In this document: piece by piece, positions 2,367 through 20,842 of the stretch | How the letters are laid out: each line of letters begins with the position of its first letter | How positions within the stretch are numbered: position 1 is the stretch's first letter | DNA from: an uncultured Actinomycetota bacterium | GTDB taxonomy: Bacteria > Actinomycetota > Actinomycetes > JAHEKZ01 | DNA length: 64,000 bases | Direction: 5' to 3' | Assembly (NCBI GenBank): GCA_963829525.1 | Contig: CAWHIJ010000003.1 | Location: 1,184,001-1,248,000, forward strand | The notes under the pieces: generated by a model | Databases searched by the model: none | Told to the model about the DNA's origin: nothing | The model's input: the letters and a program-made list of their open reading frames with translations, nothing else | Position numbers and translations under genes: made by a program

Positions 2367-2367
2367 C

Positions 2368-2949: not shown

Positions 2950-2965
2950 CTGAGAGAATGATCCC

Positions 2966-5497
2966 GTGACGCGCGGACGGCTGAGGGTCTACCTGGGTGC
3001 GGCCCCGGGTGTGGGCAAGACGTTCGCGATGCTCGACGAAGGGCGGCGCCGATCCGATCGCGGAACCGATGTCGTCATCGGGTTCGTCGAGGACCACGGA
3101 CGCCAGAAGACCCGGGAGAAGACTCTCGGACTGGAGGTGGTGCCCCGCAGAACAGTCGAGTACCGAGGCGTCACGTTCGAGGAGATGGATCTCGATGCCG
3201 TGCTGGCGCGCAGACCGGCAGTCGCCTTGGTCGACGAGCTGGCGCACACGAATGTGCCGGGCGTGAGCAACGACAAGAGGTGGCAGGACGTCGACGTGCT
3301 CCTGGACGCGGGCATCGATGTGGTCACCACGGTCAACATCCAGCATTTGGAGTCACTCAACGACGTCGTGGAGTCGATCACCGGGATCGGGCAGCGAGAG
3401 ACCGTTCCTGACGAGGTGGTGCGTCGGGCCGATCAGATCGAGCTGGTCGACATGTCCCCGGAGGCCCTACGCCGCCGTATGGTCCACGGCAACGTCTACC
3501 CCACGGAGCGCATCGACGCCGCGCTGACGAACTACTTCCGGCTCGGCAACCTCTCGGCACTGCGCGAGCTGGCGCTGCTGTGGGTGGCGGACCGCGTCGA
3601 CGAGGGCCTCGACCGCTACCGCCAACAACACGGAATCGAGACGCCGTGGCCGGCACGGGATCGGATCGTCGTTGCCCTCACGGGGGGTCCCGAGGGGGAC
3701 GCCCTGATTCGCCGAGGGGCGCGCATAGCCGGTCGTAGCGCGGGTCGCGACCTGCTTGCGGTGCATGTCAATCGTGGCGACGGAATGTCTGCGAACCAGC
3801 CTCAGGCGCTGGAGCGACAGCGCGGTCTGGTGGAGAGCCTCGGAGGCACCTACCACTCCGTGGTCGGTGAAGATGTTGCCGAGGCGCTGCTCGACTTCGC
3901 ACGTGGGGTCAACGCCAGCCAGCTCGTGATCGGGGCGAGTCGTCGAGGTCGTTTCGCAAGCATGGTGCAGCCGTGGACGGGGGAGGCGGTAGTCCGCGGC
4001 TCCGGGGACATCGACGTTCATGTGGTCACGCACGATCACGGCAACGGACGCGCAGTGCAACGGGGTCGACGGGGGTTGTCGCTCAGTCGTCGGCGAGCGG
4101 GGTGGGCGCTCGCGGTGCTGTCCCCCTGGGCGCTGACCGGTCTGCTGCTCGTCGTTGGTGGCGATCTCGGTCTGGAGACGGATCTCCTGCTCTTCCTTGC
4201 CCTGACGGTGAGCATTGCCCTGGTCGGTGGCTTGTGGCCCGCGCTCTTCGGGGCAGTCCTCTCCAGCCTGCTGCTCAACTTCTTCTTCACCTCACCGACT
4301 GGCACTTTGACCATCGCCGAGGCAGAGAACGCGCTCGGACTACTGGTCTTCGTCGTCGTGGCCAGTGCCGTGGCCGTGGTGGTAGACGGCTCCGCCCGCC
4401 GAGCCACGGCGGCGACCCGGGCGCAGGCTGAGGCGCAGGTGCTGTCCACGCTCACCGGAGACATCGTCAGATCGGACACCGGAATCTCAGCGTTGTTGGA
4501 CCGTCTGCGGGAGTCGTTCAGTCAGGACTCCGTCGCGCTCGTGGAGCGTGGCGACTCCCGGGCTCCGTGGTCGGCTGCCGCTAGCGTCGGCCTGAATCCG
4601 CCAGCCGGTCCGAAGGATGCCGACACCACGGTTCCCATCGACGAGAACATGGCACTCGTCCTTCGTGGCCGGCCACTGAATGCCAACGATCGTCGAGTGC
4701 TTGACGCCTTCGCGGCGCACACCGTCGCCCTGCTAAACCGCGACAGGCTGCAGGCTCAGGCCCAGAAGGCCGAGCACCTCGCCGAGGTGGACGAGCTCCG
4801 CAATGCGATCCTCGCCGCCGTGTCCCACGATGTCCGCACCCCGTTGTCGGCTATCAAGGCAGGGATCAGCAGTCTGCGGCAGCAGGATGTCGACTGGAGC
4901 CAGGACGAGCGGGACGAGCTCATGTTGACGGTCGAGGATGGCGCCGACCGATTGGACGCCCTCTTGACCAACCTTCTGGACCTGAGCCGGCTGCAGTCCG
5001 GGGCAGTACGACCCCGAGCAGACGAGGTCGCAGTCGTCGATGCCGTGGCCCGGGCCGCCTCGACCCTCCCTGCGGCGGCCTTGGTCATCGACATCCCCGA
5101 CGATCTCCCGGCAGTCGTTGCCGATGCCGGCCTATTGGAGCGCGTGCTCGCGAACGTTCTCGAGAATGCAGCCCGCCACAACCTGCCGGGAACTCCCGTG
5201 CGTGTCCTGGCTTTCGCCTCCGACGACGGTGTACGTGTGTTGATAGCCGACTCCGGCCCGGGCGTTCCGGACTCCGACAAGCAGCGGATGTTCGACGCCT
5301 TCCAGCGGCTCGGCGACTCGCCGCAAGGGAGTGGAATAGGGCTGGGGCTCGCGGTGGCGCGAGGGCTCGCGCGTGCGCAGCAGGGGACGCTTGAGGCAGA
5401 GGACACCCCAGGTGGGGGCCTCACCATGGTCTTGACCCTCCCGGCCGCTGCCCCTGGGTCGACCGAGGCGCATTCGATGGCCGGGGTCGCTCCGTGA
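2966..5497 (+). CDS. kdpD: Sensor histidine kinase KdpD
   Basis: GAAPGVGKT, LVDELAHTN, Usp-like domain, 4 TM, SHDVRTPL H-box, GIGLGL. Confidence 0.97.
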   Translation: MTRGRLRVYLGAAPGVGKTFAMLDEGRRRSDRGTDVVIGFVEDHGRQKTREKTLGLEVVPRRTVEYRGVTFEEMDLDAVLARRPAVALVDELAHTNVPGVSNDKRWQDVDVLLDAGIDVVTTVNIQHLESLNDVVESITGIGQRETVPDEVVRRADQIELVDMSPEALRRRMVHGNVYPTERIDAALTNYFRLGNLSALRELALLWVADRVDEGLDRYRQQHGIETPWPARDRIVVALTGGPEGDALIRRGARIAGRSAGRDLLAVHVNRGDGMSANQPQALERQRGLVESLGGTYHSVVGEDVAEALLDFARGVNASQLVIGASRRGRFASMVQPWTGEAVVRGSGDIDVHVVTHDHGNGRAVQRGRRGLSLSRRRAGWALAVLSPWALTGLLLVVGGDLGLETDLLLFLALTVSIALVGGLWPALFGAVLSSLLLNFFFTSPTGTLTIAEAENALGLLVFVVVASAVAVVVDGSARRATAATRAQAEAQVLSTLTGDIVRSDTGISALLDRLRESFSQDSVALVERGDSRAPWSAAASVGLNPPAGPKDADTTVPIDENMALVLRGRPLNANDRRVLDAFAAHTVALLNRDRLQAQAQKAEHLAEVDELRNAILAAVSHDVRTPLSAIKAGISSLRQQDVDWSQDERDELMLTVEDGADRLDALLTNLLDLSRLQSGAVRPRADEVAVVDAVARAASTLPAAALVIDIPDDLPAVVADAGLLERVLANVLENAARHNLPGTPVRVLAFASDDGVRVLIADSGPGVPDSDKQRMFDAFQRLGDSPQGSGIGLGLAVARGLARAQQGTLEAEDTPGGGLTMVLTLPAAAPGSTEAHSMAGVAP

Positions 5498-6198
5498 GCG
5501 GGGACCGGGTTCTGGTCGTCGAGGACGATGCCAACCTGGCCCGCGCCCTGGCCATCAACCTGCGTGCCCGCGGCTACACGGTGGACCTCGCATCGAATGG
5601 GACGTCTGCTCTGCACCTGGCTTCGCACCGAAGTCCCGATGTCGTCGTCCTCGACCTCGGGCTCCCGGATATGGACGGAACCGAGGTCATTGCGGGAGTA
5701 CGGGGGTGGTCCAAGATGCCGATCATCGTCCTGTCGGCCCGACAGACGTCTCACGACAAGGTGGATGCGCTCGATGCCGGGGCAGACGACTACGTGACCA
5801 AACCCTTCGCGATGGACGAGCTGCTTGCGCGCCTCCGCGCGGCGATCCGGCGATCCGGCGTTGAAGGCTCAGAAACCGTGGCGGTGACCACTCCAGACTT
5901 CAGTGTGGACCTGGCGACGCACCAAGTGACCAGGGACGGCCGCGTCGTCAAGTTGACTCCCAGGGAGTGGGGCATGCTCGAGACTCTCGTGCGCAATAGC
6001 GGCCGCCTCGTCAGCCAGCAGCAGCTGCTCCTGGCCGTATGGGGGCCCGGATACGACACCGAGACGCACTACCTGCGCGTGTACATGGCGCAGTTGAGAC
6101 GCAAGCTGGAGCCCGATCCAGCACGTCCGGTCTATCTGATCACTGAGCCCGGGATGGGATACCGATTTGTGGAGCCAGTACCGGACGCCTCCAACTGA
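5494..6198 (+). CDS. kdpE: OmpR-family response regulator KdpE
   Basis: LDLGLPDMDG, GADDYVTKPF, HYLRVYMAQLRRKLE; overlaps kdpD stop. Confidence 0.96.
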   Translation: MSGDRVLVVEDDANLARALAINLRARGYTVDLASNGTSALHLASHRSPDVVVLDLGLPDMDGTEVIAGVRGWSKMPIIVLSARQTSHDKVDALDAGADDYVTKPFAMDELLARLRAAIRRSGVEGSETVAVTTPDFSVDLATHQVTRDGRVVKLTPREWGMLETLVRNSGRLVSQQQLLLAVWGPGYDTETHYLRVYMAQLRRKLEPDPARPVYLITEPGMGYRFVEPVPDASN

Positions 6199-6609: not shown

Positions 6610-8130
6610 TCAGAAGAGTCCGAGCGGCTTCGTGCTGTAGCTGACGAGCAGGTTCTTCGTCTGGCTGTAGTGGTCGAGCATCATGCGGTGGTTCTCCCGA
6701 CCAATGCCGGAGATCTTGTAGCCGCCGAATGCCGCGCCCGCTGGGTACTCGTGGTAGCAGTTGGTCCACACCCGACCTGCTTTGATCTTGCGACCCATCG
6801 TGTAGGCGCGGGAGCCGTCACGTGTCCACACTCCGGCACCGAGGCCGTAGAGGGTGTCATTGGCGATCTCGAGTGCCTCGGCGTCGTCCTTGAAGGTGGT
6901 GACGGCGAGGACGGGCCCGAAGATCTCCTCCTGGAACACGCGCATCTTGTTGTGCCCCTTCAGCACGGTTGGCTGGAAGTAGTACCCGTCGGCGAACTCG
7001 CTGTCGACGTTGGCACGCTCGCCGCCGATGAGTACCTCAGCGCCTTCGTTGCGGCCGATCTCGACGTAGGAGGCGATCTTCTCCAGCTGCTGGGCAGATA
7101 CCTGGGCGCCAAGCTGGGTAGCGGTGTCGAGCGGATTGCCCTGCTTGATTGCTTCGATGCGGCCCAGGGCACGCGCCATGAACTCGTCGTAGATGTCCTG
7201 CTGGATGAGTGCCCTTGACGGAGCCGTGCACACCTCGCCCTTGTTGAAGGCATAGAGCACGAGGCCTTCGACGGCCTTGTCGAGGAAGTCGTCATCGTGA
7301 GCCATCACGTCACTGAAGAAGATGTTCGGCGACTTACCACCGAGTTCAACGGTGGACGGGATGAGGTTCTGTGCGGCGTACTGCATGATCAGCCTGCCGG
7401 TCACAGTCTCACCCGTGAAACCGATCTTGGCGATTCGTGGGTTCGTCGCGAGTGCTTTGCCGATCTCAGCGCCAGGGCCGTTGACGACGTTGATGACACC
7501 GGGCGGCAGGACGTCCTCGATAACCTCCATGAGCTTGAGGATCGACCACGGAGTCGGAGAGGCAGGCTTCATGACCGAGCAGTTGCCGGCGGCGAGTGCG
7601 GGTGCAAGCTTCCAGGCCGCCATCAGCAGCGGGAAGTTGAACGGGATGATCTGGCCGACTACACCTAGGGGCTCGCGGAAATGGTAAGCGACGAGGTCCT
7701 TGTTGATCTCGGTCGAACGACCCTCCTCGGAACGTGCGGCAGCGGCGAAGTACCGGAAGTGATCTACCACCAGCGGAAGGTCGGCGCCCAGAGTCTCACG
7801 GACCGGCTTGCCGTTCTCCCAGCTCTCTGCGACTGCGAGCATTTCCTTGTTGGCGTCGATCGCGTCCGCGATTGCATTGAGCACTGCGGCCCGCTCTGTC
7901 GAAGAGGCTTCACCCCACGCATCTCTTGCTGCGTGTGCGGCGTCGAGTGCCAACTCAATGTCAGCGGGCGTTGACTGGGCGATCTCGGCGATCGGGCGAC
8001 CGGTAGCCGGGCTCAGGTTCACTCGGTACTTCCCGTCCATCGGGGCGAGCCACTTTCCCCCGATGAAGTTGTCATAGCGTGGGTTGACAGTGACGATGCT
8101 TTCCGGTTGACCGGGGGCGGCGTACTTCAT
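6610..8130 (-). CDS. Aldehyde dehydrogenase (ExaC/AldB/AcoD-like)
   Basis: [21 protein letters not shown], catalytic Cys in GEVCT, EEIFGPV; start taken at ATG 8130 after GGGAG. Confidence 0.95.
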
Positions 8131-8300
8131 GACGTTCTCCCTTGTTCCAAGTGGAATTGGGCCTCGTCGAAGACGGGGCGACCCCCGCGAATTCTCCATC
8201 GGTAGCGGCACGGGGCGCCTAACTGCCACTTAACGGCACCATCGAGCCGGTCGTCAGAGGCGAACGTCCCCTCTGCGTCGGAAGTGCTAAGGGCTCGTCG

Positions 8301-8756
8301 TCAGGAGTTCGTTCCCTGGAACAGTGAGGACAGATCGAGGGATGGGACGTGGCGGCGGGAGGCCAAGGAGACGTACTGACGGGCGAGGGCATCCTTGCCC
8401 GCGCCGAGGACAGTACTGAGCAGGCCGATGGCCTCGGCCAGATCGGCGGGTGGCTCCGCGAGGACCACGCGTCGCCACATCGCTTCCTCGAGCGCGTTGA
8501 ACGCTGTCTGGACCTCCGAGACGTCGAACCCGGCATCGAAGCGCTCAATGGCGACTTGCTGGGAGTAGGCGACAACCGACGACAGGTCCCGGTCCCGGAT
8601 GGCACTCACCACGAGGGTGAAGAGGTCCGCGAGCCGTTGCCGGGTGAGCTGCTCACCTGCGCGCTCGTAGTGCGTGACGTGTGAGCGCTGAAGTGCCGAG
8701 AACGCCTCGTCGAGGACCTGTGGCTCGGCCTTCAGCAGGATGGTGTCAAGGTCCAC
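8301..8756 (-). CDS. Small all-helical protein, RsbRD N-terminal (globin-like) domain-like
   Basis: GGAGG RBS then GTG; helical; ERFDAGFDVSEV resembles the R-x3-GF-x3-EV signature of RsbRD_N domains. Confidence 0.6.
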   Translation of the reverse strand: MDLDTILLKAEPQVLDEAFSALQRSHVTHYERAGEQLTRQRLADLFTLVVSAIRDRDLSSVVAYSQQVAIERFDAGFDVSEVQTAFNALEEAMWRRVVLAEPPADLAEAIGLLSTVLGAGKDALARQYVSLASRRHVPSLDLSSLFQGTNS

Positions 8757-8817
8757 GGTGCTGCACCTCCAGGGGGTTACGGCGATCGTCCCACAAACAG
8801 GCCCGGCTGCCTCGACG

Positions 8818-10787
8818 TCAGGTCGTGAGGACTTGCTCAGCCGATCCGTTGGCTTCCGGTCGGCACACCCGGCGCACCCGCACGACCTGGGCTACCAGAA
8901 TGGTCAAGACGATGATGACCAGCCCAAAGAGTGTGAAGGCCAAGGCTCTTCCTACCCCAGCTAGAGCTCGTGGAGGCGGAGGAGAGTAGAGCGAAGCAGC
9001 CTCGGTGACGTCGAGGCTCGTCGTTCCGGTCACGGGATCCCCGTAAATGTCGGGCAGGTAGGTGGCTGAGATGGTTCGAGGCCCAGTGACTGCTGCTACA
9101 TACGTCACTGCAGCAGTTCCGGTGTCGTCAGTCTCGATACCGCCGAGTGGAACCTGATTGTCACCTGGAGCGAACATCGACGTGCTTTCGTAGAAGTTCA
9201 CCAGCGCACCCGCAACAGGGCTTCCCATCCGCGGTAACCGTCGCCGTGACGGTGTTATCGAGCCCATCTTCGACTGCGACCACCTTGATGATGGGTTTCT
9301 TCGCGGCGCCGGTCGCGATGGAAGGGCCGGACGCGGCGTAGGCAGGTTCTGCTTTGGTGACACCCATTGCGCCGAGCGCGACCATGAGCAAGATCACCGC
9401 TCCCAAAGCGCCAGCCGCTTGTCCGTGTGAGGATCTGCCAGAGATAGCAGGCTCGGGAACTGGCACGTTGGCTTCGCCCGTCACCTCCTGCATCTCAGCG
9501 ATGGACAGCAACGGAAAGACGCGGAACAGGAGCATCAACAGCAGCGGAATCGCGGCAACGCCACCGAGGGTCACCGCTATCGAGACCCAGGTGAACTGGA
9601 AGAGATCGCCGAAGGAGTTCGTCAGTCGGTCGTAGCCGGAGGTCTCGATCACCATAGTGACCCGTTTGATCCACATTGCGATTACGACGAGAACGGCTGC
9701 GACGACGATGCCCCAGATGTTCCTTGTCCAAGGAAGGGCAAGGATCACGATGGGCAGGATCGTTCCTGCGACGAGGAAGAGCCAGAACCAAACGGCAACG
9801 CCTCCGAGCAGCATGCCGCAGATGATCTGGGTGGGACCGGCTTCCCCGACGTAGGCGCTGGGGAGCAGGTCGGCGAAGGTCAGGTAGACGTACACCGCAC
9901 CGAGCGCCACCATCAGGTACCCAAGTCGCACGAAGTGCTTCTCGGTGATGAAGCCCTCCAGGTGGTAGCCGCGTCGGAACCCTGCGGTGACGAGGATGAC
10001 CAGGGCAACCCCGGAGTAGAGAGCTGCGATCACGAAGTAGGGAGCCCAAATACTCTCGTGCCAACCGGGTCGACTGACAAGGGCGAACGCCCAAGCCAAC
10101 ACAGAGTGCACCGAGACAGCCAGCGGAATGATGACGATCGCAACGATGATCATCGCGGAGTGGAGCACTCGGCGCTGTTCCATCGAGCCGACCCAGCCCC
10201 GAGAAATGAACCGATACACAAAGCGACGTCCGCGTCCGAGCTCATCGGGATGTGAGTCCAGAAGGGTCGCGGTGTCGGGTACCAGCGGGAGCAGGAAGAA
10301 GACGAACGTGGCAAAGGTGTACGTGAGGATCGCCACCATGTCCCAGAACACTGGCGAAGCGATGTTGGCATGGGTCACCATGCCAAGGAGTCGATCGGGC
10401 CGGCCCAGGTGCGGAATGATGAAGGCGGCCCCGACAATGACCGTGACGAGAGCCATACCTTCTGCCAGACGTACCAACGGCGCCCGCCATGAGGCCCCGG
10501 TCAAGCAGGAGGATGGCCGACACCACGGCACCGCCGTAGGAGACCCCGATGATGGCGACGACGTCGGCAATGTAGATGGCCCAGAACGACCTGTCTGTGT
10601 AGCCGGCCACCCCCATGCCCTGTGACAGCTGATAGATCCACGCGGCGAGACCGATGACGACGAGAATGCTCAACAACGCGACGGCAATCCAGAACCTCTT
10701 GCTTGCGGGTCGGAAGGGTCGCATCGCGGCCTCGACGACGTCCGTCTGCGTGGTCGTCACCATGGTTGATTCAAGGACGCCGCTCAT
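8818..10787 (-). pseudogene. NrfD/PsrC-family membrane subunit with C-terminal Ig-like domain and TM anchor; two +1 indels, probably sequencing errors
   Basis: FWAIYIADVV, HLGRPDR, SPVFWD, SVHSV, RPGWH motifs; indels near 10508 and 9219; removing two bases gives one 655-aa ORF. Confidence 0.85.
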
Positions 10788-11689
10788 TGCACACCTGTCA
10801 AGGGTCCACCGACCGGCTGACCGTTGCCGGGGATGTAGTAGCACCGCGGATTGGTACCCAGCTCCTCCTTGAAGCGCACTGCGTTGCCCTCGCGAAGGAA
10901 TGTCGAAAGCCTGACGGTCGTCTGGCCGTTGACGGCCACGTCCGTGACGAGGTCACCGATGAAGTGAGCGCCTCGGGGGCACGCTTCAACGCACGCCGGT
11001 AGATCGTTGCTGTAGGGGATGCGGTCGGCGCATAGGACGCACTTGCCAACAGTTCCGATTTGGTTGGTTGGGAACTCTGGCGTATTCGGTGACGGCGCCG
11101 GCATCCGGTTCGTCGGTGCTGGCCCGTTCCAGTTGAAGTAGCGGGCTTCGTAGGGGCAAGCTGCCATGCAGGCCCGAGAGCCGATGCACAGGTCTTGGTC
11201 GACGAGGACGACTCCTTGGTCGGTCTTGGTCGTCGCGCTGACGGGGCAGACGTTCAGACAGGGCGGGTTCTGGCACATCTGGCACATCACCGGCATGAAG
11301 AACTCGTCACCGGATTCGTCGTGCCACGACAAGGTGCGCATCCAGGTCTGTTCAGGAGGTAGCCCGTGGCGCTCTTGGCAGGCAGCAACGCACTTGCGCT
11401 CTCCCTTGCAGGCTCTCAGATCGACGACCCGGCACCATTGGTGCTCCTCCCCGCTGGTGCCGTCTGCGGGCGCCGCCTGGGCCTCGTCCCGATAGGCGAT
11501 GAGTCCCAGGGAGCTCCCGGCGGCCGCGACGCCGGCCAAACCCAAGCCCCGAAGCAGATTGCGCCGGGACATGTCCAACGCCTCTCCTTCCGGGGTGACC
11601 CCGAGACTTTCAGGGGGCTTTCCGACCGGGGTGAGTCCGAGGTCCACATGAGGGCCATGACGCTTACCGCTACCGGACTGTCTGGTCAT
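10784..11689 (-). CDS. Tat-exported 4Fe-4S dicluster protein (NrfC/PsrB/DmsB family)
   Basis: SRRNLL twin-arginine signal; Cys groups CKGERKCVAAC, CQMCQNPPCLNVCP, CIGSRACMAACP, CVLC...CVEACP; GTNPRCYY tail. Confidence 0.92.
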   Translation of the reverse strand: MTRQSGSGKRHGPHVDLGLTPVGKPPESLGVTPEGEALDMSRRNLLRGLGLAGVAAAGSSLGLIAYRDEAQAAPADGTSGEEHQWCRVVDLRACKGERKCVAACQERHGLPPEQTWMRTLSWHDESGDEFFMPVMCQMCQNPPCLNVCPVSATTKTDQGVVLVDQDLCIGSRACMAACPYEARYFNWNGPAPTNRMPAPSPNTPEFPTNQIGTVGKCVLCADRIPYSNDLPACVEACPRGAHFIGDLVTDVAVNGQTTVRLSTFLREGNAVRFKEELGTNPRCYYIPGNGQPVGGPLTGVQ

Positions 11690-11725
11690 CGTTTCCTCCA
11701 AGTCGTCCGATGTTCTGGCACCTCT

Positions 11726-11796
11726 TCAGTGTGTTTGCCGCAAGGAGGTGGCACATCGGTGTATCCCGCTGAGGCCGATAGGTGTTATTACCTACT
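11726..11796 (-). promoter_or_regulatory. Promoter/operator copy A, facing the 4Fe-4S/NrfD operon
   Basis: Minus strand reads AGTAGGTAATAACACCTA-N9-GCGGGATACACCGATGTGCCACC-N4-TGCGGC-N4-ACACTGA; inverted copy at 14173-14243. Confidence 0.75.
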
Positions 11797-11900
11797 CAGC
11801 GCGATCCGGCCCGGGCGCGCCCACGGCGTAGGCTTGGCCTGACCGGTACCGCGTCCGTCGCGGCGGCCAAGGGAAAGCGGCCTGTTGACGAAGGGAGCGC

Positions 11901-12572
11901 ATGGATCACTCCGAAGAACCAGAGAGCGGCATCCGGGTACTCATCGTTGATGACCACCCCCTCTTCCGGGCAGGCATCCGGGAACGGCTCGAGGTGGTGG
12001 ACGGTCCCATCGTGGTAGTTGGCGAGGCTGAGGACGGGCTGCAGGCCCACAGCCTGGTCGGAAGCTTGCGACCCGACGTGATGCTCATCGACATTTCTAT
12101 GCCGGGCATGAACGGCATCGACGCCACCCGAATGATCCATGCCGACTTCCCCGACGTCAGCATCATCATTCTCTCTGTCCATGACGACGATCAGTACGTG
12201 CACGCGGCCCTGGATGCCGGAGCCAGCGGCTACCTCCTAAAGACTATTGAGGCCTCCGAGTTGCGGGGATTCATCGTTGGGGCGGCTCGAGGAGAGTCCG
12301 CCTTGTCGCCACCTATTGCGCGCAAGGTGCTCACACTCTTGTCGGGCCCTCCCGAAGACACAAACAAACTGAGCGAGCGCGAGCGGCAAGTCCTCGAGCT
12401 TGTTGCCCGTGGCGCAGCAAACAAGACAATCGCCAAAGAACTGTCCATGAGCACCCGAACCGTCGAGGCCCACATGCGAAACATCTTCGAGAAGTTGGGA
12501 GTGTCTTCGCGCACTGAGGCAGTCACCCAGGCCGTCCGCCACCAATGGATTCAGCTCGCCGATGTCGACTGA
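11901..12572 (+). CDS. NarL/LuxR-family response regulator
   Basis: VLIVDDH, IDISMPGMNG, GASGYLLK, LSERERQVL...RTVEAH HTH. Confidence 0.96.
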   Translation: MDHSEEPESGIRVLIVDDHPLFRAGIRERLEVVDGPIVVVGEAEDGLQAHSLVGSLRPDVMLIDISMPGMNGIDATRMIHADFPDVSIIILSVHDDDQYVHAALDAGASGYLLKTIEASELRGFIVGAARGESALSPPIARKVLTLLSGPPEDTNKLSERERQVLELVARGAANKTIAKELSMSTRTVEAHMRNIFEKLGVSSRTEAVTQAVRHQWIQLADVD

Positions 12573-14154
12573 TACGGCGACCATTACGCCAGCTGCCCAG
12601 GCCCTGACAACGGACGACTCCGGAACATCTGGATCGAAGATTCGGACGATCCTCGCGAGCATTCCGGTACGCGACTATCGGTTCTGGATCGTGCAACTGT
12701 TGCTCATTCTGATCAACGTCGCTCACCTCCTCCTGGAGGAAACCCACGTTCTCGGGGGCGACTGGGCGTTGGATCTGCTGGCGATATCGGTGCTCTTGAT
12801 ACCCGTCGTTTACTCGGCGCTCGTTTTTGGGCTCGGAGGTGCAATTCCCACAGCACTCTGGGCCTTTGTGCTCTCTCTCCCTGAGATCAGCACCCACAAC
12901 TGGCCGATCAGGATGGGAATCTTGGTCCAGTTCGGAATTGTTAGCGCGATCGGCATCATCGTTGGCGTCCGCGTTGATCGAGAGGCCGCAGCAAAGCGCA
13001 CAGCGGATCAGGCGAACTTGCGCCTCTCTCGACTGAACGCAACCGCCGCCGCTGTTGCTGCCTCCTTGGATTTGGAGCATGTACTCAGAGGCACGCTCCG
13101 TGCGACCCTCGATGGCCGAAGGCAGCAAGTCGTCTGGGTGCGAACACTCGCTATGCCCCACACCTCCGGGCTCACGATCATCGATGCCAGTCTGACCGAG
13201 CCGCCCCGGCAACTTGATCGCGTCCAGGAGGGACTCACGCTTGCGGCCTGCCTCACCGGGCTTGAACAACGCGACACCACGGGGGGAACCGACGCTCGAA
13301 CGATCGTGGTCGCCCTGAAGACAGGAGAGCGTACCTTCGGGGCCATCGGCCTCACCCAGACCGACGATGCCCTCCTGCGTGATGAGTGCAACGTTCTCGG
13401 CGCTGTTGCAAATCAGCTCAGTGTGGCCCTCAACAACATCTTCGATCACGCCAGCACGCGCGAGGCACTGTCGGACCTAGCCGATACCAAGCGAAATCTT
13501 GAGACGTACATCGAGCTTGCTACCGAAGCCCAGGAAGCGGAACGAAAGCGTCTTTCGCGTGAGCTTCACGACGACGTCCTGCAGTCACTGGCTGTTGCCA
13601 AGGCCCAGATTGATGCGGTGGGCCCACACGGAGCTTCTGAGGAAACAAGGGGGCGCTTGCTTGGGGTGCAAGAGATCCTTGCCACGACAATCGGCAGTGT
13701 GCGGCGGTATTGCAAAGATCTGCGGCCGTCCCTGCTCGACGATCTCGGACTGATCGATGCCATCAGCTGGCTCGTCTCGGAGTTGCGGGCGCGAACAGAC
13801 CTCTCGGTCGACATGGTTGTCACGGGGTCACGTCAGCGGCTAGGGGAACGTGACGAACTTCTCATCTTTCGGGTAGTGCAAGAAGCACTTCGCAACGTCG
13901 AACGGCACGCGGATGCGACATATGTGCGGGTTGGTCTGGACTTCTGCGACGACAAGCTCACGGTGGTCATCGAAGACAATGGGAAGGGAATGGGTCTCAA
14001 TAGCGAGACGGCAAAACCGTCATGGGAGGCGGGTCTTGGACTGCGCGGCATGGACGAGCGCACGAAGTTGCTGAAGGGGATGCTTGTGACGAAGAGCGGA
14101 CCTGGTGCGGGCACGAAGATTGCGCTGACTGTTGCCCTCTTTGCGGACGAGTAG
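12562..14154 (+). CDS. Membrane sensor histidine kinase (TM region, GAF-like domain, HisKA_3, HATPase)
   Basis: About 4 TM, QEAERKRLSRELHDDVLQ, LRPSLLDDLGL, QEALRNV, DNGKG, GLGLRGM. Confidence 0.95.
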   Translation: MSTDTATITPAAQALTTDDSGTSGSKIRTILASIPVRDYRFWIVQLLLILINVAHLLLEETHVLGGDWALDLLAISVLLIPVVYSALVFGLGGAIPTALWAFVLSLPEISTHNWPIRMGILVQFGIVSAIGIIVGVRVDREAAAKRTADQANLRLSRLNATAAAVAASLDLEHVLRGTLRATLDGRRQQVVWVRTLAMPHTSGLTIIDASLTEPPRQLDRVQEGLTLAACLTGLEQRDTTGGTDARTIVVALKTGERTFGAIGLTQTDDALLRDECNVLGAVANQLSVALNNIFDHASTREALSDLADTKRNLETYIELATEAQEAERKRLSRELHDDVLQSLAVAKAQIDAVGPHGASEETRGRLLGVQEILATTIGSVRRYCKDLRPSLLDDLGLIDAISWLVSELRARTDLSVDMVVTGSRQRLGERDELLIFRVVQEALRNVERHADATYVRVGLDFCDDKLTVVIEDNGKGMGLNSETAKPSWEAGLGLRGMDERTKLLKGMLVTKSGPGAGTKIALTVALFADE

Positions 14155-14172
14155 CCGCCGTTAGTTTTCGTC

Positions 14173-14243
14173 AGTAGGTGATAACACCTAGCAAATTCGC
14201 GGGATACACCGATGTGCCACCAACCTGCGGCGATTGACACTGA
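14173..14243 (+). promoter_or_regulatory. Promoter/operator copy B, facing the lipoprotein gene
   Basis: AGTAGGTGATAACACCTA-N8-GCGGGATACACCGATGTGCCACC-N4-TGCGGC-N5-ACACTGA; 23-bp core identical to copy A. Confidence 0.75.
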
Positions 14244-14289
14244 GGGAGACATCGGTAGGCCTTAGCTACTGACCGACTCAAGGAGCGTA

Positions 14290-14718
14290 ATGCGAAACTC
14301 AAAAGTGTTAGCCGGGCTTGTGGCGGCTGCCGCCCTGGTGACTCTTGTGGCGTGCAGCAGTGACGACACCACGTCGTCGGGAGCATCAGGCGACACAACC
14401 AGCGCTTCACCAACCGGAACCACGCCGGAAGATCTACGTACCTCGGACGCAGCGGTTGCGCAGGGGATGAACGACATCAACAAGCTCGCCGCGGATATCG
14501 CCGCAGCGCCAGCAGCGCAGGGCAAGACGCTGTCCGATGGCATTGAACCCTTGTGGCAGCCGATCGAGGGTACGGTGCAGGAGAACAGCCAGGAGACCTA
14601 CGACGCGTACGAAGGCGCATTCACGCTGCTGGAGTCTGGCGACGTGACGAAGGCAGCGGAGGGCGCGAAGGCAGTAGACGAGGCGACCACCGCTTACCTC
14701 GAGCAGTTCCCCGGGTAG
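14290..14718 (+). CDS. Lipoprotein with S/T-rich linker and helical-bundle domain
   Basis: AAGGAG RBS; lipobox LVA-C; IEPLWQPIEGTV...YDAYEGAF. Confidence 0.85.
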   Translation: MRNSKVLAGLVAAAALVTLVACSSDDTTSSGASGDTTSASPTGTTPEDLRTSDAAVAQGMNDINKLAADIAAAPAAQGKTLSDGIEPLWQPIEGTVQENSQETYDAYEGAFTLLESGDVTKAAEGAKAVDEATTAYLEQFPG

Positions 14719-14758
14719 TTCACGCAAGGACTGTGTGCTCCTCGCCTCCGTGGCGGTC

Positions 14759-14806
14759 AAGGGCTCGGCGTCGCTGTCAAGCAAGTGGCAGCGACGTCGG
14801 GCCCTT
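14759..14806. terminator. Long hairpin between convergent genes (probable bidirectional terminator)
   Basis: AAGGGCTCGGCGTCGCTGTCA pairs with TGGCAGCGACGTCGGGCCCTT: 21-bp stem with G-U pairs. Confidence 0.65.
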
Positions 14807-14859
14807 TGCTTGTCGAATCAAGGGACCCACCCTGGTTCGCAAACTGCGTTCCGTGCACC

Positions 14860-16332
14860 CTACTCCGGGCTATTCGCTGCCTCCCCGCCGATTTCGTAGG
14901 GCGTGGTGTACCCGGCGTACATCAGGTGAGCCAGTAGTCCCTGACTGGCATGTGGCAGGTTGTGGCAGTGGTCAACCCAGATGCCTGGGTTGTCTGCCAC
15001 GAACGCGATGTCGTATGTCTCTCCGTCACGGACATTCAGCGAGTCCACCCACCAGGGGCTGCCCGTTGCTGGCTGCCCATTCCTGGCAAGCACAACGGCG
15101 TGATGACCGTGCAGATGCATGGGGTGCACCTCGCCGCTGTTGTTCACGATCTCCATGCGGACGATGTCACCCTCCTCCACCATGAACATCGGTACGTCCG
15201 GGTAGAGGTGGCCGTTCACTGTCCACCAGAGTCCCGGCCTGCCATCGAGGAAACCGGGGCGACGGTCGACGACGTACTCGAACTCGCGGGTGGGCCGTTC
15301 CGGATCAAAGCCGAGCGATGATGGCGAGCCGTAGTTCAGAAAGTCGACGAAATCCTGCGGTATGGGGGTTTCTGCAACGTCCGCAGCACCAGAACCCAAG
15401 AGGATGGCACTGTTGCCACCCAGCTCGACGCGTGCTCCAGAGTCTGGGATGACGATCTCGAGGTCGGCGCGTCCACCGGCTGTCACGAGTACCGCCGCAC
15501 CGTCCACGGTGTCCGGCTGATGGACGTCGTAACCATCGACGGCGACCACTCGGTAATCGGCGCCACTGACCCACACCGACATCGGACCATTGTCGGTGTT
15601 GATGACCCGCACTCTCGCGGTCTGTCCCGGTGCGGAGTCCACCGCGACGTCACCTTCGTCGCCGTTGACAGTGCGCACCCCGTCGTAGATGTGAACGAGT
15701 GCGGGAACGTCCACGACATCGGCGGACGCCTTCTTGGCCTCGGGACTGACGATGACCGCCCCTAGAAGGCCCCCGAGGACCTGCTCGTGGGAAAGCTGGT
15801 GTGAGTGGTACCAGTAGGTTCCGGCCCGGTCTGCGTAGAAGCGGTATGTGAAGGAGCCTCCTTCAGGGACTTCATCCTGCGTAACGCCGGCCACCCCGTC
15901 CATCGGGTTGGGAACATCGACGCCGTGCCAGTGCAGTGTGACGCCCTGCGGGACCGACTCGTTGACGAGGTTCACCTCAACGAGGTCTCCCCTTGTCGCC
16001 TGGATCGTCGGGCCGGGGGACTGCCCATTGACGGTGTAGCCGTCGACCTCTCGACCTGACTCCAGGGTGAAGGTCTCCTGGCGCACGACCAGGTCGACGG
16101 CGACATCTGCCTTCACACCTGCGGGCACTCCGAGGTCGGTGATGCTGACCGCGTCCGAGCCCATGTGCCCGCCGGCATCGTGGCTGCTCGGCCCTCCGCC
16201 GTAGTCGGTGTAACCCATCTCCATCACGGAGTACTCGCCTGGCAGAAGGCTTGACCACCACAGCCACGCAAGCGGCAGAACGATCACGGTCGTGGCAAGG
16301 AGAGCCAGCACCGATCGCCGTCGAGCGCTCAC
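14860..16332 (-). CDS. Multicopper oxidase, membrane-anchored
   Basis: HWHG, WYHSH, HPMHLHGH, HCHNLPH copper motifs; N-terminal RR plus hydrophobic segment. Confidence 0.95.
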   Translation of the reverse strand: MSARRRSVLALLATTVIVLPLAWLWWSSLLPGEYSVMEMGYTDYGGGPSSHDAGGHMGSDAVSITDLGVPAGVKADVAVDLVVRQETFTLESGREVDGYTVNGQSPGPTIQATRGDLVEVNLVNESVPQGVTLHWHGVDVPNPMDGVAGVTQDEVPEGGSFTYRFYADRAGTYWYHSHQLSHEQVLGGLLGAVIVSPEAKKASADVVDVPALVHIYDGVRTVNGDEGDVAVDSAPGQTARVRVINTDNGPMSVWVSGADYRVVAVDGYDVHQPDTVDGAAVLVTAGGRADLEIVIPDSGARVELGGNSAILLGSGAADVAETPIPQDFVDFLNYGSPSSLGFDPERPTREFEYVVDRRPGFLDGRPGLWWTVNGHLYPDVPMFMVEEGDIVRMEIVNNSGEVHPMHLHGHHAVVLARNGQPATGSPWWVDSLNVRDGETYDIAFVADNPGIWVDHCHNLPHASQGLLAHLMYAGYTTPYEIGGEAANSPE

Positions 16333-16363
16333 CGCCAGGTCATCGCGTCACGTGGAGGTTTCC

Positions 16364-16801
16364 CTAGGCGGGAATCTCAGCGCCGGTTTGCACCCGCTTA
16401 CCCGCCATGACGGCGAGTGAGAACAACAGGAGTGCGTTGAGACCGTGGAAGATGCCGAAGACAGCGTTCTCATGTCCGAAGAGGCCGAGTGCTACCTGGA
16501 CGATCACCGCGAGGACGACGAAGCCTGCCCACTTGACGCCTCCGGGGACTTTCGCAAAGAACGACACGACGAGGAACACCAAGGCGATCAAGGGAATGAG
16601 CATCATTCCGTTCATGCCGTGGATGGCGAAGCCGACGACGCCAGGGAAGTTGAGGTCGCTCTCCATGGATGCCTTGTCGAGTACTCCACCGTTCTTGTCG
16701 ACCCAGACGCCCAGGCCAAAGATGGCGTAGGCGACCGCCGCCGCTTGAATGGCGACCTCGGCGGCGATGACGTACGCAATGACGCGATAGGCAGATCTCA
16801 T
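16364..16801 (-). CDS. Small 4-TM membrane protein with His residues in helices (DUF6220-like)
   Basis: Four hydrophobic segments, AIHG and FHGLNAL motifs; upstream of the multicopper oxidase. Confidence 0.7.
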   Translation of the reverse strand: MRSAYRVIAYVIAAEVAIQAAAVAYAIFGLGVWVDKNGGVLDKASMESDLNFPGVVGFAIHGMNGMMLIPLIALVFLVVSFFAKVPGGVKWAGFVVLAVIVQVALGLFGHENAVFGIFHGLNALLLFSLAVMAGKRVQTGAEIPA

Positions 16802-16997
16802 GGAGGGCCCCCTCGGGCGAGATCGTTGTTGATGTGTGGGGTGATCACGGGCCTAAAGACCAGATGATCTTGGTCGCAAGGTAGAGGGTTCGAGGCGTGA
16901 AGACAAGGAATTTCGCGGATCCTGCTCGACGCCTAGAGGCCCGCACCAGAGATACGGTTGGTCATCATGGTGACCGCGAACATTGGACCCCACCGCG

Positions 16998-19008
16998 ATG
17001 AGCTCGTTGCGCAGCAAGGACCTGTGGCTTGGACTACTTTCTGTCCTCTGCCTGTCACTGATCGTGATATCAACCTGGGCTCTGCTGACGAGGGGTCCAG
17101 ACGATGGGGCGGCGTCGGGAATGCAGCAGTTCTGGGTGGCACCAGATGGTGACGACAGCGCGTCGGGCTCACGCGAGGATCCGTGGGCAACGCTGCAACA
17201 CGCAGTGGACGAGAGTGAGCCCGGTACAACCGTCTACGTGAGAGGCGGGAGCTACGAACAGCAGCTCTCCTTCAGCCGCTCGGGTGAACCGGGGCAACCG
17301 ATCACCGTCATCGCTGAAGCGGGTGAACAACCAGTTCTCGACGGCTCGGGGCTGGACGTGACTGCCGGACAGTCGGCGATGGTCAAGATCGACGGTCAAC
17401 ATGACGTGGTCGTCGATGGCCTAGAAATTGCCGGGTACCGGTCGGATGTCAGCGGTGAGGTCCCGATCGGGGTCTTCGTCGTCGGTGAGACCACGGATGT
17501 CCGGTTGGCAAACCTCAACATCCACGACTTGGGCACAACCTTCGACGGGCGCAACGGCGGGGACGCCCATGGAATTGCGGTCTATGGAACATCTGCTGAG
17601 CAGCCGATTTCGGGACTGGAGATCGTCGACTCCGAGCTGTACGACCTGTCGTTGGGATCATCGGAAGCACTTGTCCTCAACGGCAACGTCAAGGACTTCT
17701 TGGTTGAGGGGAACCGAGTCCATGACACGAACAACATCGGAATAGATGTCATCGGATTCGAGGGAACCGCACCAGATCCGACTGTCGACCAGGCAAGGGA
17801 CGGCATTGTTCGTGGCAATGAGGTGTGGAACATCGACAGCAAGGGAAACCCTGCGTACGGGAATGACCGAAGTGCTGACGGCATCTATGTCGATGGCGGG
17901 CGAGACGTCTTGGTTGAAGCGAACGTGATCCACGATGTCAACATCGGGATCGAGCTGGCCAGTGAGCATGCCGATCGGGCGACTCGGAACATCACCGTTC
18001 GAAGCAACGTGGTGTACGACACAACGGCTATTGGCGTGGCCATCGGTGGCTATGACCGGCGGCGCGGAAGCACCGAGAGCTGCACTCTGGTCAACAACAC
18101 CGTGGTTCGGTCCGCTGGTCCGGCGCTGCTGGTTCAGTTTGACACCCGCGACAACCTGATTGCCAACAACGTGATCGTGGCCGGCGACAACCATGTCTTC
18201 ATCGAGAACCCATATCGTGAGAACGCGGGCAACACTGTTGACCACAACATTTACTGGGTGAGCGACGGATCGACCAGGGGGACTTGGGAGTGGAAGGGGC
18301 GTGAGTACGGGAATTTCGCGCGTTGGCGTGCCGAGTCGGGGATCGATCAGGACTCGGTCTTCGACGACCCCGAGTTTGTCGATCCGGCAGCCGACAACTA
18401 CGCGCTTCGTGAGAGCTCGCCCGGTGTCGACGCTGGTCTGCGCCTCGCGGTGGCCGGGACCAAGGACCTGCTCGGGGAAGCGCGCTCGCAAGGTACCGCC
18501 ATCGATGTGGGTGCGGTCGAGTTCAATTCCCCAGAGCCGAGCCCGACCCCGGAGATCAGCGGAACGGCCGTCGCGCTCGGCGACGTGAAGTGGATTTCGC
18601 AGTCGAACGGATGGGGGCCTGTCGAGGTCGACATGAGCAACGGAGAGCGCCCGCAGGGGAGATGGGCTGCCGTTGCGGATTGGGGCGATGGAGTTCGCCC
18701 GGGGCATCGGCACGCATGCCCCATCGCGGATTCTCTTCGATGTGCCGGAAGACTGCACGGTCTTCCTGTCGGACGTCGGACTCGATGAGGAAGTGGGTGA
18801 CCAGGGAACGGTGGTGTTCGAGGTGTACGGCGACGGCGACCTCTTGACCACAAGTGGGCTGGTGTTCGCCACCGATGAGCCGATCCCATTGGTCGCCGAC
18901 GTCACAGGGGTGAACCAGCTCGAGCTGGTCGTCACCCGTGGGGGCGACGGGAACGCGTTCGACCACGCTGACTGGGGAGACGCCCGGCTCGATTGTGCGG
19001 CCGGTTAG
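16998..19008 (+). pseudogene. Membrane-anchored right-handed beta-helix protein with C-terminal NPCBM/NEW2 module; one net +1 indel
   Basis: WVAPDGDD...DPWATLQHAV start, NNIGID, ADGIYVDGG, IGIELASE; NGWGPVE...RGIGTHA...DHADWGDA; frame break near 18650. Confidence 0.8.
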
Positions 19009-19521: not shown

Positions 19522-19604
19522 GACAGAATCTTACGGACCGCAAGCCTGGAAGTGATCGGCTGAAGCGGCTGTTGTTGGGGTCGACACCGAACCGAAGGAT
19601 GCCC

Positions 19605-20842
19605 GTGACCGTCTCCCAAACGTTCCAAAGGCAACCGATCCAGATGTTCGGCACCCCTGGTGCCCCGACTGTCATCGTGCCAAGCAGTTCCTCAGCGAGC
19701 AACGCATTCCCGTACGAGTTCACCGATGTGGATGCCGATCCGGCCGGCCGCGAAACCGTGGAGCGGGTCAACGACGGCAAACTCATCATCCCGGTACTGG
19801 TGTTTGAGGACGGCAGCACTTTGGTTGAGCCGAGCAACGCCGACCTCGCGGCCAAACTGGGCCTGCGCACCGAGGCCCAGCATCGCTTCTACTCGTTGAT
19901 CATCGTGGGAAGTGGTGTCGCCGGTCTCACGGCCGCGATCTACGCCGCTCGTGAGGGTATCGCCACTCTTGTGATCGAGTCCGGGGCCGTCGGAGGCACG
20001 ATCGGGATGCACCGACCAGGTCGACAACTTCCCAGGGTTTCCCGATGGCGTGGCGGGTGGCGAGTTCGCCGATCGTCTGCGTCGCCAGGCCGAGCGCTTC
20101 GGCGTCGAGATCCTGTCGGCGACCGAAGTTGCGTCCCTTGCAGTCGACGATGACCAGAAGGTCGTGACCACAAGTTCCGGCGACGAGTACCGGTCGCATG
20201 CGTTGCTTGGTCGCGACGGGCTCGACCTACCGACGCCTTGGCATTCCGGGGGAGGAAGACTTCATCGGCTCCGGGGTGCACTTCTGCGCCACGTGCGACG
20301 GTGCCTTCTACCGCGGCGAGGAGGTCGTAGTCGTCGGCGGCGGTAACTCAGCAACTGAGGAGAGCCTGTTCCTCACCACGTTGGACCAGCGCATCACGCT
20401 GGTCACGACGGCCGACCGGCTCACGGCCAGCGCCGCCGTAGTCGACAAGGTGGAGCGAACGACGCAATCGATGTTCGTGTCAGCACCACGCCCGTCGAGT
20501 TCGTAGGTGAGAACGGCAAGCTGACCGGGCTTGTCGTCGAGGATCCCGCCGGAGTCCGAGAGACGATCAGAACACCGGCGGCCTTTGTCTTCATCGGGCT
20601 GACACCCAACGCCTTGCTGGTGAGCGAGCTGGTGGAGACCGACGCCTCAGGGATTCGTCAGGGCAGACATGGGCATGCAGACATCGGCTTCGGGAGTTTT
20701 CGTGGCCGGTGACGTACGTAGCGGAAGCACCAAGCAGGCGGCTGCCGCGGCTGGCGAGGGCGCAGCCGCAGCGATCGCGATTCGGCGTTACCTCGAGCCG
20801 TTCGGCGAGGCGATGCGTCCCAACGTCGTTGATACCGGTTAG
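19605..20842 (+). pseudogene. Glutaredoxin/mycoredoxin-like domain fused to thioredoxin-disulfide reductase; six single-base indels
   Basis: Reconstruction gives WCPDC, GSGVAG, DNFPGF, ATGS, HFCATCDG, VGGGNSA, VAGDVR...KQ; 411 aa with no internal stop once indels are corrected. Confidence 0.85.

Follow-up and report, generated by a model that had tools for sequence, protein, structure and literature searches.

A candidate heme-free menaquinol oxidase family of Actinomycetota, resembling the core of alternative complex III, and its lipoprotein-bearing variant

The interval from position 8818 to position 14718 of the window, by which we mean the whole 64-kb stretch of DNA analyzed here from an uncultured Actinomycetota bacterium, holds the genes for an iron-sulfur (Fe-S) protein, an NrfD-type membrane subunit, a two-component system, and a lipoprotein. 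We propose, with moderate confidence, that this interval encodes a heme-free menaquinol oxidase resembling the core of alternative complex III (ACIII), that it represents an Actinomycetota family which feeds extracytoplasmic acceptors, and that the window carries a derived lipoprotein variant of that family. All five genes lie where a first-pass annotation of the same sequence had placed them; the components are listed below, with Tat standing for twin-arginine translocation and Ig for immunoglobulin.

8818..10787, minus strand: ActC/NrfD-type membrane subunit with a C-terminal helix, an Ig-like domain, and a final helix; Pfam NrfD; reading frame broken
10784..11701, minus strand: putative Tat-exported Fe-S protein of the NrfC/PsrB/ActB-B2 type; Pfam Fer4_11 and a weak TAT_signal match
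11737..11796, minus strand: shared upstream element, copy 1, in the divergent intergenic region between the Fe-S and regulator genes
11901..12572, plus strand: NarL/LuxR-type response regulator; Response_reg (2.3e-30) and GerE (2e-21)
12562..14154, plus strand: HisKA_3 sensor kinase with a four-helix membrane N terminus; HisKA_3, HATPase_c, and a weak GAF match
14173..14231, plus strand: shared upstream element, copy 2, before the lipoprotein gene
14290..14718, plus strand: lipoprotein with a predicted four-helix-bundle domain of no named family; lipobox, no Pfam family
14760-14805: hairpin terminator with a 20-bp stem, at the end of the lipoprotein unit

The Fe-S stop codon overlaps the ATG of the membrane subunit gene (ATGA), the regulator and kinase genes overlap by 11 nt, and the lipoprotein gene is monocistronic, stopping at the hairpin. 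In the window, the membrane subunit gene falls into three open reading frame (ORF) pieces on the minus strand (10242-10844, 9161-10570, and 8818-9363). Alignment to intact homologues of 655 aa joins them into a single gene that carries a +1 insertion near 10502 (cttGacc) and a second one at 9217-9220, in aagccctgtt, which bears out the corrected NrfD-Ig fusion of the first-pass annotation. The middle piece matches Pfam PF03916 (85.3 bits against a cutoff of 25.8; 8.1e-24), a family that the homologues carry as well, and the sole NCBIfam match of the pieces is DsrP (NF045798), at 38.8 and 47.3 bits against a cutoff of 350.

Comparison with solved structures points to ACIII. A profile of the NrfD-Ig family reached four PDB sequences at an E value of <=0.01, all of them ACIII ActC chains (6f0k_C at 1.4e-60, then 8k9e_C, 6lod_C, and 6btm_C, spanning 1.4e-60 to 1.8e-52), and neither PsrC nor any other NrfD-type PDB chain was reached at that threshold. 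In the alignment with 6lod_C, ActC residues His141, Asp171, His246, and Arg394 fall on the family-invariant H126, D149, H227, and R375, and His99 falls on an invariant Y84; all five positions are present in the window's pieces. According to the accessible text of PMC7439408, His141 and Asp171 stand at the menaquinol pocket of ActC, and Arg394, His246, and His99 belong to its proton passage. A subunit of the ActC type fits the first-pass proposal of a quinol-linked conduit to the outer face of the membrane.

The Fe-S gene likely starts at the ATG at 11689, 5 nt after GGAGG, and encodes about 300 aa. Its product matches Fer4_11 (3.7e-17) and has an SRRNLL motif with a weak TAT_signal match (Pfam), which agrees with the first-pass claim that it carries its own Tat signal. 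The twin-arginine signal and four Cys groups of NrfC/PsrB-type proteins are both present, and all four groups are conserved; by its motifs the protein would be a four-cluster protein of the generic NrfC type. In the window, C90 serves in group I, where position 101 is E. Only three Cys residues make up group III, which reads C-x5-C-x3-C, lacking the second Cys, in 46 of 46 family members, where ArrB-like relatives have C-x2-C-x2-C-x3-C. Against PDB, sequence searches gave PsrB (2vpw_B, 9e-24), ArrB (6cz7_B), and ACIII ActB (6f0k_B, 1e-18); PsrB and ArrB are the closest solved Fe-S subunits (9e-24; 2.1e-25 with a profile), and the protein covers only residues ~794-956 of the 1,039-aa ActB. Pfam found no molybdopterin domain on it. 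Among NCBIfam family models, DsrO (NF045797) ranks best (175.3 bits, 1.3e-51, under the curated cutoff of 200), followed by TtrB and NrfC and then QrcC.

From these features we infer the cofactors, the direction of electron flow, and the kind of acceptor, along the following route. The ActC/NrfD-type subunit would oxidize menaquinol near the outer face of the membrane, and electrons would pass to a [3Fe-4S] cluster, then through three [4Fe-4S] clusters of the Tat-exported Fe-S subunit, to reach an acceptor outside the membrane. In most relatives that acceptor would be a cupredoxin-fold lipoprotein, encoded by the first gene of the operon. The C-terminal Ig-like domain and the extra helix would be a structural extension of the membrane subunit. 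Homologues have precomputed Big_1 or Big_3_5 domains in this part, and a low-confidence full-length model (predicted local distance difference test score [pLDDT] of 59, used for topology only) places a beta-sandwich at 499-593 between helices at 455-478 and 609-640. The domain looks structural because it is without Cys or His and because, together with its transmembrane (TM) helix, it is encoded as a gene of its own in nine loci; the first-pass suggestion that it might be the redox partner thus loses its footing.

The family was surveyed with an alignment of 15 full-length NrfD-Ig homologues, run against a single genome from each species. Of 215 matching stretches, 205 were confirmed; the final set comprises 79 loci, and every one whose title names a taxon is from Actinomycetota. 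The loci were annotated by tblastn and with hidden Markov models (HMMs) built from their own ORF clusters. The Fe-S gene lies immediately upstream of the NrfD gene in 73 of the 79, the other 6 having <=217 nt of upstream DNA. Of the 79 loci, 47 have a two-component system next to the pair; where each flank reaches 3 kb or more, 30 of 39 loci carry one. Twelve loci contain the lipoprotein gene. Co-conservation of the five genes, on which the first-pass annotation had staked its case, is therefore observed. Cultured carriers include Kineosporia sp. A_224, Kineosporia sp. R_H_3, and Cryobacterium sandaracinum TMT2-16. Our literature search, which covered sources other than subscription journals and supplements, returned no paper on an actinobacterial NrfCD- or ActBC-type module with a cupredoxin.

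Partner genes were counted in the 61 informative loci, defined as those with at least 1,200 nt upstream of the Fe-S gene. In 43 of them, a same-strand gene for a cupredoxin-domain protein lies no more than 6 kb away, in most cases immediately upstream of the Fe-S gene; 12 encode the lipoprotein and 2 a cytochrome b5 domain protein; 4 loci have none of the three, and a cupredoxin never occurs together with the lipoprotein (0/61). The cupredoxins are of three kinds: small lipoproteins with a conserved H, C-x3-C, and Met; two-domain lipoproteins (Cup2) with His and Met positions but no Cys, which match Cupredoxin_1; and classic type-1 proteins. The commonest partner, cluster 4, is a lipoprotein cupredoxin of about 205 aa (for example, L035 8428-9039, plus strand) that conserves H136, C176-x3-C180, M191, and M197 in 29 to 30 of 31 sequences. 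These residues recall a two-Cys site of the CuA kind, though with a single conserved His, and they may form an unusual copper center. In four informative loci (L037, L041, L049, and L064), NosZ and a type-1 cupredoxin lie ahead of the pair; L037 has NosD in addition, and L049 has NosD along with an ABC ATPase and an ABC-2 protein. In L073 (10019-14206, plus strand), one 1,396-aa ORF joins NrfD to five cupredoxin/plastocyanin domains, although this contig may carry indel errors.

Heme c is essentially absent from the module loci: CXXCH occurs in 4 of 1,054 called genes (79 loci plus the first 24 kb of the window), once in each and never in the operon. Each locus has one NrfD-type gene, and the window has no further NrfD match. 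Among ORFs of at least 600 aa, 51 of 54 were scanned (the other 3 were omitted since their own scan or that of a cluster mate existed), and molybdopterin enzymes make up 4 of the 51, lying 4.5 to 7.7 kb from the operon in their own units; no molybdopterin subunit stands in the operon in any of the 79 loci. The window itself was covered by Pfam scans of its ORFs in sets of 10, 22, and 37, by NCBIfam equivalog models, and by custom HMMs in all six frames. Across the 64 kb, the Pfam scans and custom HMMs revealed no molybdoenzyme, hydrogenase, multiheme cytochrome, cupredoxin, or NosZ, in keeping with the first-pass report of no catalytic gene in or beside the cluster.

Because cupredoxins occur in 43 of 61 informative loci, a usual partner class exists, and the module, which the first-pass annotation had called self-contained, is not so at the family level. 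With a cupredoxin as the likely acceptor and four relatives in nos clusters, the family is best read as a heme-free menaquinol:copper-protein oxidoreductase. To our knowledge, Actinomycetota lack soluble cytochrome c. A bolder version, which we advance only tentatively, is that a minimal, heme-free descendant of the ACIII core, made of an ActC-like subunit with an Ig-TM extension and a 3x[4Fe-4S]/[3Fe-4S] subunit, serves as the dedicated menaquinol:cupredoxin oxidoreductase of Actinomycetota, supplying extracytoplasmic copper enzymes, including N2O reductase, and perhaps conserving energy through the retained ActC proton path; in the window's clade, the lipoprotein would have replaced the cupredoxin, either as acceptor or by fitting the complex to a partner whose gene lies elsewhere.

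In a quick, midpoint-rooted tree built from 71 Fe-S sequences, the 13 rows of the lipoprotein type gather into a single clade (Shimodaira-Hasegawa-like approximate likelihood ratio test [SH-aLRT] support of 100), nested in a 26-row clade (SH-aLRT 100) whose remaining members are of the two-domain-cupredoxin or cytochrome b5 type. The nearest relative of the window is L002, at 94% identity. Ratios of nonsynonymous to synonymous substitution (dN/dS) run from 0.05 to 0.11 for the Fe-S protein; the regulator gives 0.05-0.15, the lipoprotein 0.07-0.19, and the NrfD core 0.10-0.20. The window's clade, which appears derived, is under purifying selection and has no cupredoxin gene in cis, and since it is a single clade with low dN/dS, the cupredoxin-less form appears to be maintained rather than a remnant.

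The lipoprotein has a lipobox, L-V-A-C at residues 19-22, which ends a signal peptide as expected of a bacterial lipoprotein, and the Cys is kept in all nine aligned rows that include the N terminus. An AlphaFold2 model predicts an up-down four-helix bundle (core pLDDT > 96). Foldseek gave no PDB match at E <= 0.001, the best being cytochrome b562/BRIL and cytochrome c'. The family comprises 240 representatives at E <= 0.001; W89, E93, Y104, and E108 are nearly invariant, many acidic residues are conserved, and the lipoprotein has no Cys or His. Cytochrome b562 holds its heme through axial Met and His ligands; the lipoprotein has no His, and its Met60 is Leu in 2 of 13 rows. Pfam matches in the family are weak (DUF5059 in 9 of 149, Cytochrom_B562 in 3 of 149, and SMBP in 3 of 149). 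In one relative, P0143, the protein is joined to a plastocyanin-type domain that has the full set of four copper ligands. The ESM Atlas assignment to DUF4363 (0.83) was set aside as below the trusted level, the other matches being unnamed actinobacterial clusters only. A co-fold of Fe-S residues 78-304 with lipoprotein residues 44-142, run with 13-row alignments and without controls, scored 0.12 against a mark of 0.32, which we count neither for nor against binding. The idea that the lipoprotein is itself the electron acceptor is not supported by these results.

The regulatory part of the module is conserved along with the rest. The element that the first-pass annotation had seen before both targets does exist: its two copies, at 11737-11796 and 14173-14231, are inverted and therefore have the same orientation toward their own genes, and the copies of this 60-nt element match over a 33-nt arm (91%) and an 18-nt arm (94%). 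Within it lies the palindrome TAGGTGnTAACACCTA (TAGGTG-N4-CACCTA), which in the 64 kb occurs at the two element sites only (4 strand-matches where 0.20 are expected, a count that none of 100 shuffles attained). From the copy 1 palindrome (11779-11794) it is ~89 nt to the ATG of the Fe-S gene and 106 nt to that of the regulator gene; the copy 2 palindrome (14175-14190) precedes the lipoprotein ATG by ~100 nt. Relatives have 23 palindrome matches with <=1 mismatch in 1.13 Mb of loci, and 22 of these, from 16 loci, fall in the intergenic region between the regulator and Fe-S (or cupredoxin) genes or ahead of the lipoprotein gene; both sites are present in each of the five loci that share the window's arrangement. 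When six such regulatory regions are aligned, a second invariant block, GCGGGATACACCGATG, appears besides the palindrome. With the five genes co-conserved and the palindromes kept, we regard the module as a conserved unit with a conserved operator. An Rfam scan of 8000-17000 (E <= 1) gave no match to a described RNA, and a sigma-70 consensus scan of 8200-16900 gave no promoter-like site.

The regulator (REC plus GerE) and the kinase (HisKA_3 plus HATPase_c) have the NarL/LuxR and HisKA_3 architecture. All NCBIfam equivalogs score under their cutoffs (MctR, 166.9 against 300; NarL, 159.3 against 250; MctS, 142 against 700), and none of the named equivalogs NarL, MctR/MctS, MadR/MadS, or UhpB can be assigned. 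GerE-type regulators usually target palindromes. The regulator, once phosphorylated by the kinase, would bind the TAGGTG-N4-CACCTA sites and so govern three units together: the Fe-S/NrfD pair, the divergent operon to which it belongs, and the lipoprotein gene. In a comparison of 42 near-full-length kinases, the four-helix membrane region holds the conserved residues; hardly any fall in the GAF region, where neither a His nor a Cys is conserved. We suspect that something is sensed in the membrane. A DevS-like heme GAF sensor was considered and rejected, as PDB matches cover the kinase core only and the GAF region lacks a conserved His or Cys.

The first-pass annotation had also judged the kinase and regulator to be richer in A/T. 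Against 45 other genes of the window (GC, 0.643 +/- 0.017; GC at third codon positions [GC3], 0.772 +/- 0.042), the kinase has a GC of 0.599 and a GC3 of 0.684, the lowest of 52 segments measured; the regulator has 0.606 and 0.732, and the Ig-TM part has a GC3 of 0.632. The composition of the Fe-S protein, NrfD core, and lipoprotein genes is ordinary. The shift is thus real but modest, and as a sign of acquisition, the further step that the annotation took, it offers weak evidence.

Several observations weigh against the proposed copper-linked menaquinol oxidase. No uninterrupted NrfD reading frame is found in the window. In the DNA examined, neither the window nor any of its 12 closest relatives has a cupredoxin, so that a copper-protein acceptor may not apply to this clade; the Cup2-type partner, the one nearest to it, has no conserved Cys, only His and Met, and may bind metal rather than carry electrons. 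The clade's derived position comes from a quick tree with a midpoint root, and the menaquinol:copper-protein role of the family is a prediction from sequence. The best NCBIfam matches are DsrO and DsrP, with all equivalog scores under the cutoffs, and the DsrO/DsrP module is thought to act in a different redox context. By its motif, the three-Cys group may hold a [3Fe-4S] cluster, as in ActB. Finally, the accessible text of PMC7439408 has the [3Fe-4S] cluster of ACIII pass its electrons to hemes and gives no known role to the [4Fe-4S] clusters, which makes a heme-free route an extrapolation.

The interruptions of the NrfD gene invite a different view of the window, in which the cluster is the leftover of a cupredoxin or nos operon after a deletion and is being lost. 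Two frameshifts in a 1.97-kb gene, the lack of any partner gene in 64 kb, and truncated proteins in the close relatives P0001, P0028, and P0038 would fit such decay. Truncated or frameshifted module proteins occur in relatives' records more generally, P0124 included; in P0123 a kinase piece is joined to the lipoprotein, and in P0124 the lipoprotein shifts frame after QENSQE, both of which look like deletions or errors. Nevertheless, the cupredoxin-less layout recurs in 12 other loci, with NrfD intact in L001-L003, and these loci group with the window in one clade (SH-aLRT 100). Moreover, dN/dS for the window's NrfD against relatives (0.17-0.20) shows no excess over that between relatives (0.10-0.19). 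The first-pass annotation had named a deletion remnant as one outcome that would undo its proposal, and with 13 lipoprotein-type rows in one clade and dN/dS of 0.05-0.20 across the genes, we consider it improbable.

The breaks themselves may be assembly errors, since other genes of the window are broken too and since NrfD is also split in L004, which is a single 2.27-Mb contig. The katG gene (47313-49527, minus strand), with a Fur-family regulator gene just upstream (49377-49814, minus strand), consists of overlapping ORFs of 401 and 409 aa, each with a peroxidase domain, and a frameshift is likely at ~48.4 kb. A thioredoxin-reductase-like Pyr_redox_2 gene (19572-20503, plus strand) is in at least two pieces, covering profile positions 1-35 and 102-179. 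At 16974-19005 (plus strand), a 601-aa beta-helix protein and a 123-aa NPCBM domain lie in overlapping frames and are probably one gene with a frameshift at ~18.7 kb. Long genes elsewhere in the window are intact. With the NrfD gene interrupted twice, either the complex is absent here or the assembly carries two wrong bases; as other genes are broken too, sequencing error and recent inactivation are both plausible causes.

A role in metal handling has to be weighed as well: the module might reduce or oxidize Fe or Cu on an extracytoplasmic binding protein (the lipoprotein here and Cup2 in relatives) for uptake or detoxification. The first-pass annotation had offered metal reduction before uptake as an example, and there are weak hints of that kind, namely, the nearly invariant W89, E93, Y104, and E108 of an acidic lipoprotein without Cys or His, the SMBP (small metal-binding protein) and DUF5059 matches in its family, a Cup2 that matches Cupredoxin_1 without the type-1 Cys, a multicopper oxidase that adjoins the window's module and, in L041, stands at a distance of 2.5 kb, and an FTR1-type permease ~4 kb from the module in L045. 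The Pfam hints, however, are below or near noise (best E values of 3.7e-4 to 8.6e-5), the oxidase stands beside the module in only 2 of 80 loci and beyond a strong terminator, no transporter is co-conserved, and the NosZ, quinol-type NO reductase, and NarG neighbors of relatives suggest respiration. We accordingly regard metal handling as a whole, metal reduction before uptake included, as unlikely.

The module could also run the other way, as Qrc does, with an extracytoplasmic donor such as a reduced copper protein or Fe(II) supplying electrons to the menaquinone pool. The family models, which rank DsrO/DsrP best and for the Fe-S protein then TtrB, NrfC, and QrcC, would allow this, as would the several cupredoxins of Acidimicrobiia-type loci, and NrfD-type modules are described as working in either direction in the accessible parts of PMC13059093 and PMC8076601. 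Still, cupredoxins and [3Fe-4S] clusters are of high potential relative to menaquinone, and loci with NosZ need a supply of electrons, not their withdrawal. The potentials in the accessible text of PMC7439408 are +140 mV for the ACIII [3Fe-4S] cluster and -70 mV for menaquinol, and the downhill flow is therefore from quinol outward; we think inward flow quite unlikely. Least probable of all, and very much so, is that the two-component system and lipoprotein are mere neighbors with no functional tie to the Fe-S/NrfD pair. The operator link is a prediction from sequence, and 9 of 39 loci with enough flank show no two-component system under the thresholds used. Against this stand the palindrome and an invariant 16-nt block before both targets in the window, L001, and L002, palindromes in the module's regulatory regions in 16 loci, the adjacency of the two-component system in 47 of 79 loci, and seven loci in which the lipoprotein gene is the first of the regulator-kinase operon, beside the Fe-S gene.

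The features that follow the lipoprotein gene in the window are these.

14860-16332, minus strand: membrane-anchored, three-domain multicopper oxidase (Pfam)
14860-16801, minus strand: unit of this oxidase and a DUF6220-like membrane protein, convergent with the lipoprotein gene, with the hairpin between them

The oxidase directly adjoins the lipoprotein gene, separated from it by the 20-bp-stem terminator, and went unmentioned in the first-pass annotation; a related oxidase is near the module in L041 only. Directly downstream of NrfD, at 8301-8756 (minus strand), is a 151-aa protein with a weak RsbRD_N match, which relatives do not keep beside the module. A nos cluster, with NosZ and NosD/F/Y beside the module, is absent: the NosZ HMM found no match in the 64 kb, and the beta-helix protein at 16983-18788 reaches no more than 25.6 bits against NosD, a weak match. 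At 3-6198 (plus strand) lies a kdp operon of kdpB (5' end cut off), kdpC, kdpD, and kdpE. A P-type ATPase cluster (c34) that seemed to be a recurrent neighbor was dropped, its member in the window being this KdpB; those near the module in L041 and L048 are unrelated ATPases clustered with KdpB, which we take as coincidence.

Relatives show further arrangements. L013 (16418-21792) and L059 (13677-18940) have a NarG-like enzyme (1,234 to 1,271 aa) with a NarH-like partner 4.5 kb downstream of the module, with a second regulator, a kinase, and transporter-sized genes in between; L059 is titled Nanopelagicaceae, and L013, titled Actinomycetota, groups with it in the quick tree. L042 (5438-7613) and L044 (4129-6453), both Dermatophilaceae, have a quinol-type NO reductase (NorB with a cytochrome-c-like domain) 1.4 to 1.7 kb from the module, and L044 also has a 1,046-aa cupredoxin/multicopper protein. 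In nine loci (L045, L054, L062, L065, L067, L070, and L074-L076; three titled Acidimicrobiales and six Actinomycetes), a conserved polytopic membrane protein of ~345 aa with no Pfam family comes after the genes for the split NrfD, the Ig-TM protein, and the cupredoxin. Paralogous modules, two or three to a genome, occur in some cases (L010 and L052; L018 and L024; L026, L038, and L066), these being Kineosporia sp. A_224, bin SKS3.bin76, and Phycicoccus KJC.3. The partner types of these paralogs differ, which argues for distinct roles.

The exit of electrons from the menaquinol pool to outer-face enzymes is poorly known in Actinomycetota. If the proposal is true, soil and freshwater actinobacteria, among them relatives labeled Nanopelagicales and Planktophila, would have an electron route to N2O reductase and other copper enzymes that can be put to the test. 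It would also mean that the quinol-oxidizing core of ACIII can work without heme subunits, and it would define a regulon (a kinase, a regulator, a palindrome, and two targets) with which to find the inducing signal.

Among known systems, the lipoprotein's predicted up-down bundle recalls cytochrome b562 and cytochrome c', from which it differs in having no His or heme-attachment Cys and no match at E <= 0.001. The regulator and kinase share their domain architecture with NarXL, DevSR/DosSR, and LiaSR; the kinase, however, is without a periplasmic sensor domain, its conserved part is the four-helix membrane domain, and its GAF, unlike that of DevS, lacks a conserved His or Cys able to hold heme. 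DsrMKJOP likewise pairs a Tat Fe-S protein with an NrfD-type subunit, and DsrO and DsrP are the module's best NCBIfam matches, but the scores are below the cutoffs (200 and 350), there are no DsrM, DsrK, or DsrJ genes and no dsrAB context, and the hosts are aerobic or facultative Actinomycetota. PsrBC and ArrB provide the closest solved relatives of the Fe-S subunit, whereas the operon has no molybdopterin subunit in 79 loci and PsrC goes unmatched at E <= 0.01.

In four relatives, the module holds a place analogous to that of NosGH, as a membrane quinol-oxidizing pair in a nos cluster. An NrfCD-like label for NosGH was considered and dropped, given that the accessible text of PMC3475470 describes it as being of the NapGH type. 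NosGH combines the NapGH type with c-type cytochromes, whereas the module combines the NrfC/NrfD type with a cupredoxin neighbor.

ACIII itself is, in the accessible text of PMC7439408, a menaquinol:auracyanin oxidoreductase whose ActB carries one [3Fe-4S] cluster where it borders ActC, and the Chloroflexota enzyme reduces the cupredoxin auracyanin. The module's membrane subunit keeps four of the five named quinol-site and proton-path residues of ActC and has ActC chains as its only PDB matches (1.4e-60 to 1.8e-52), and its Fe-S protein matches the C-terminal part of ActB (6f0k_B residues 794-956), with the three-Cys group standing where ActB holds [3Fe-4S]. The module differs in being without the pentaheme ActA, the monoheme ActE, ActD, and the second NrfD-type subunit ActF, and its Fe-S protein is without the molybdopterin-like N-terminal B1 domain of ActB. 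The membrane subunit has Tyr in place of ActC His99 and adds a helix, an Ig-like domain, and a final helix, and the module has its own two-component system.

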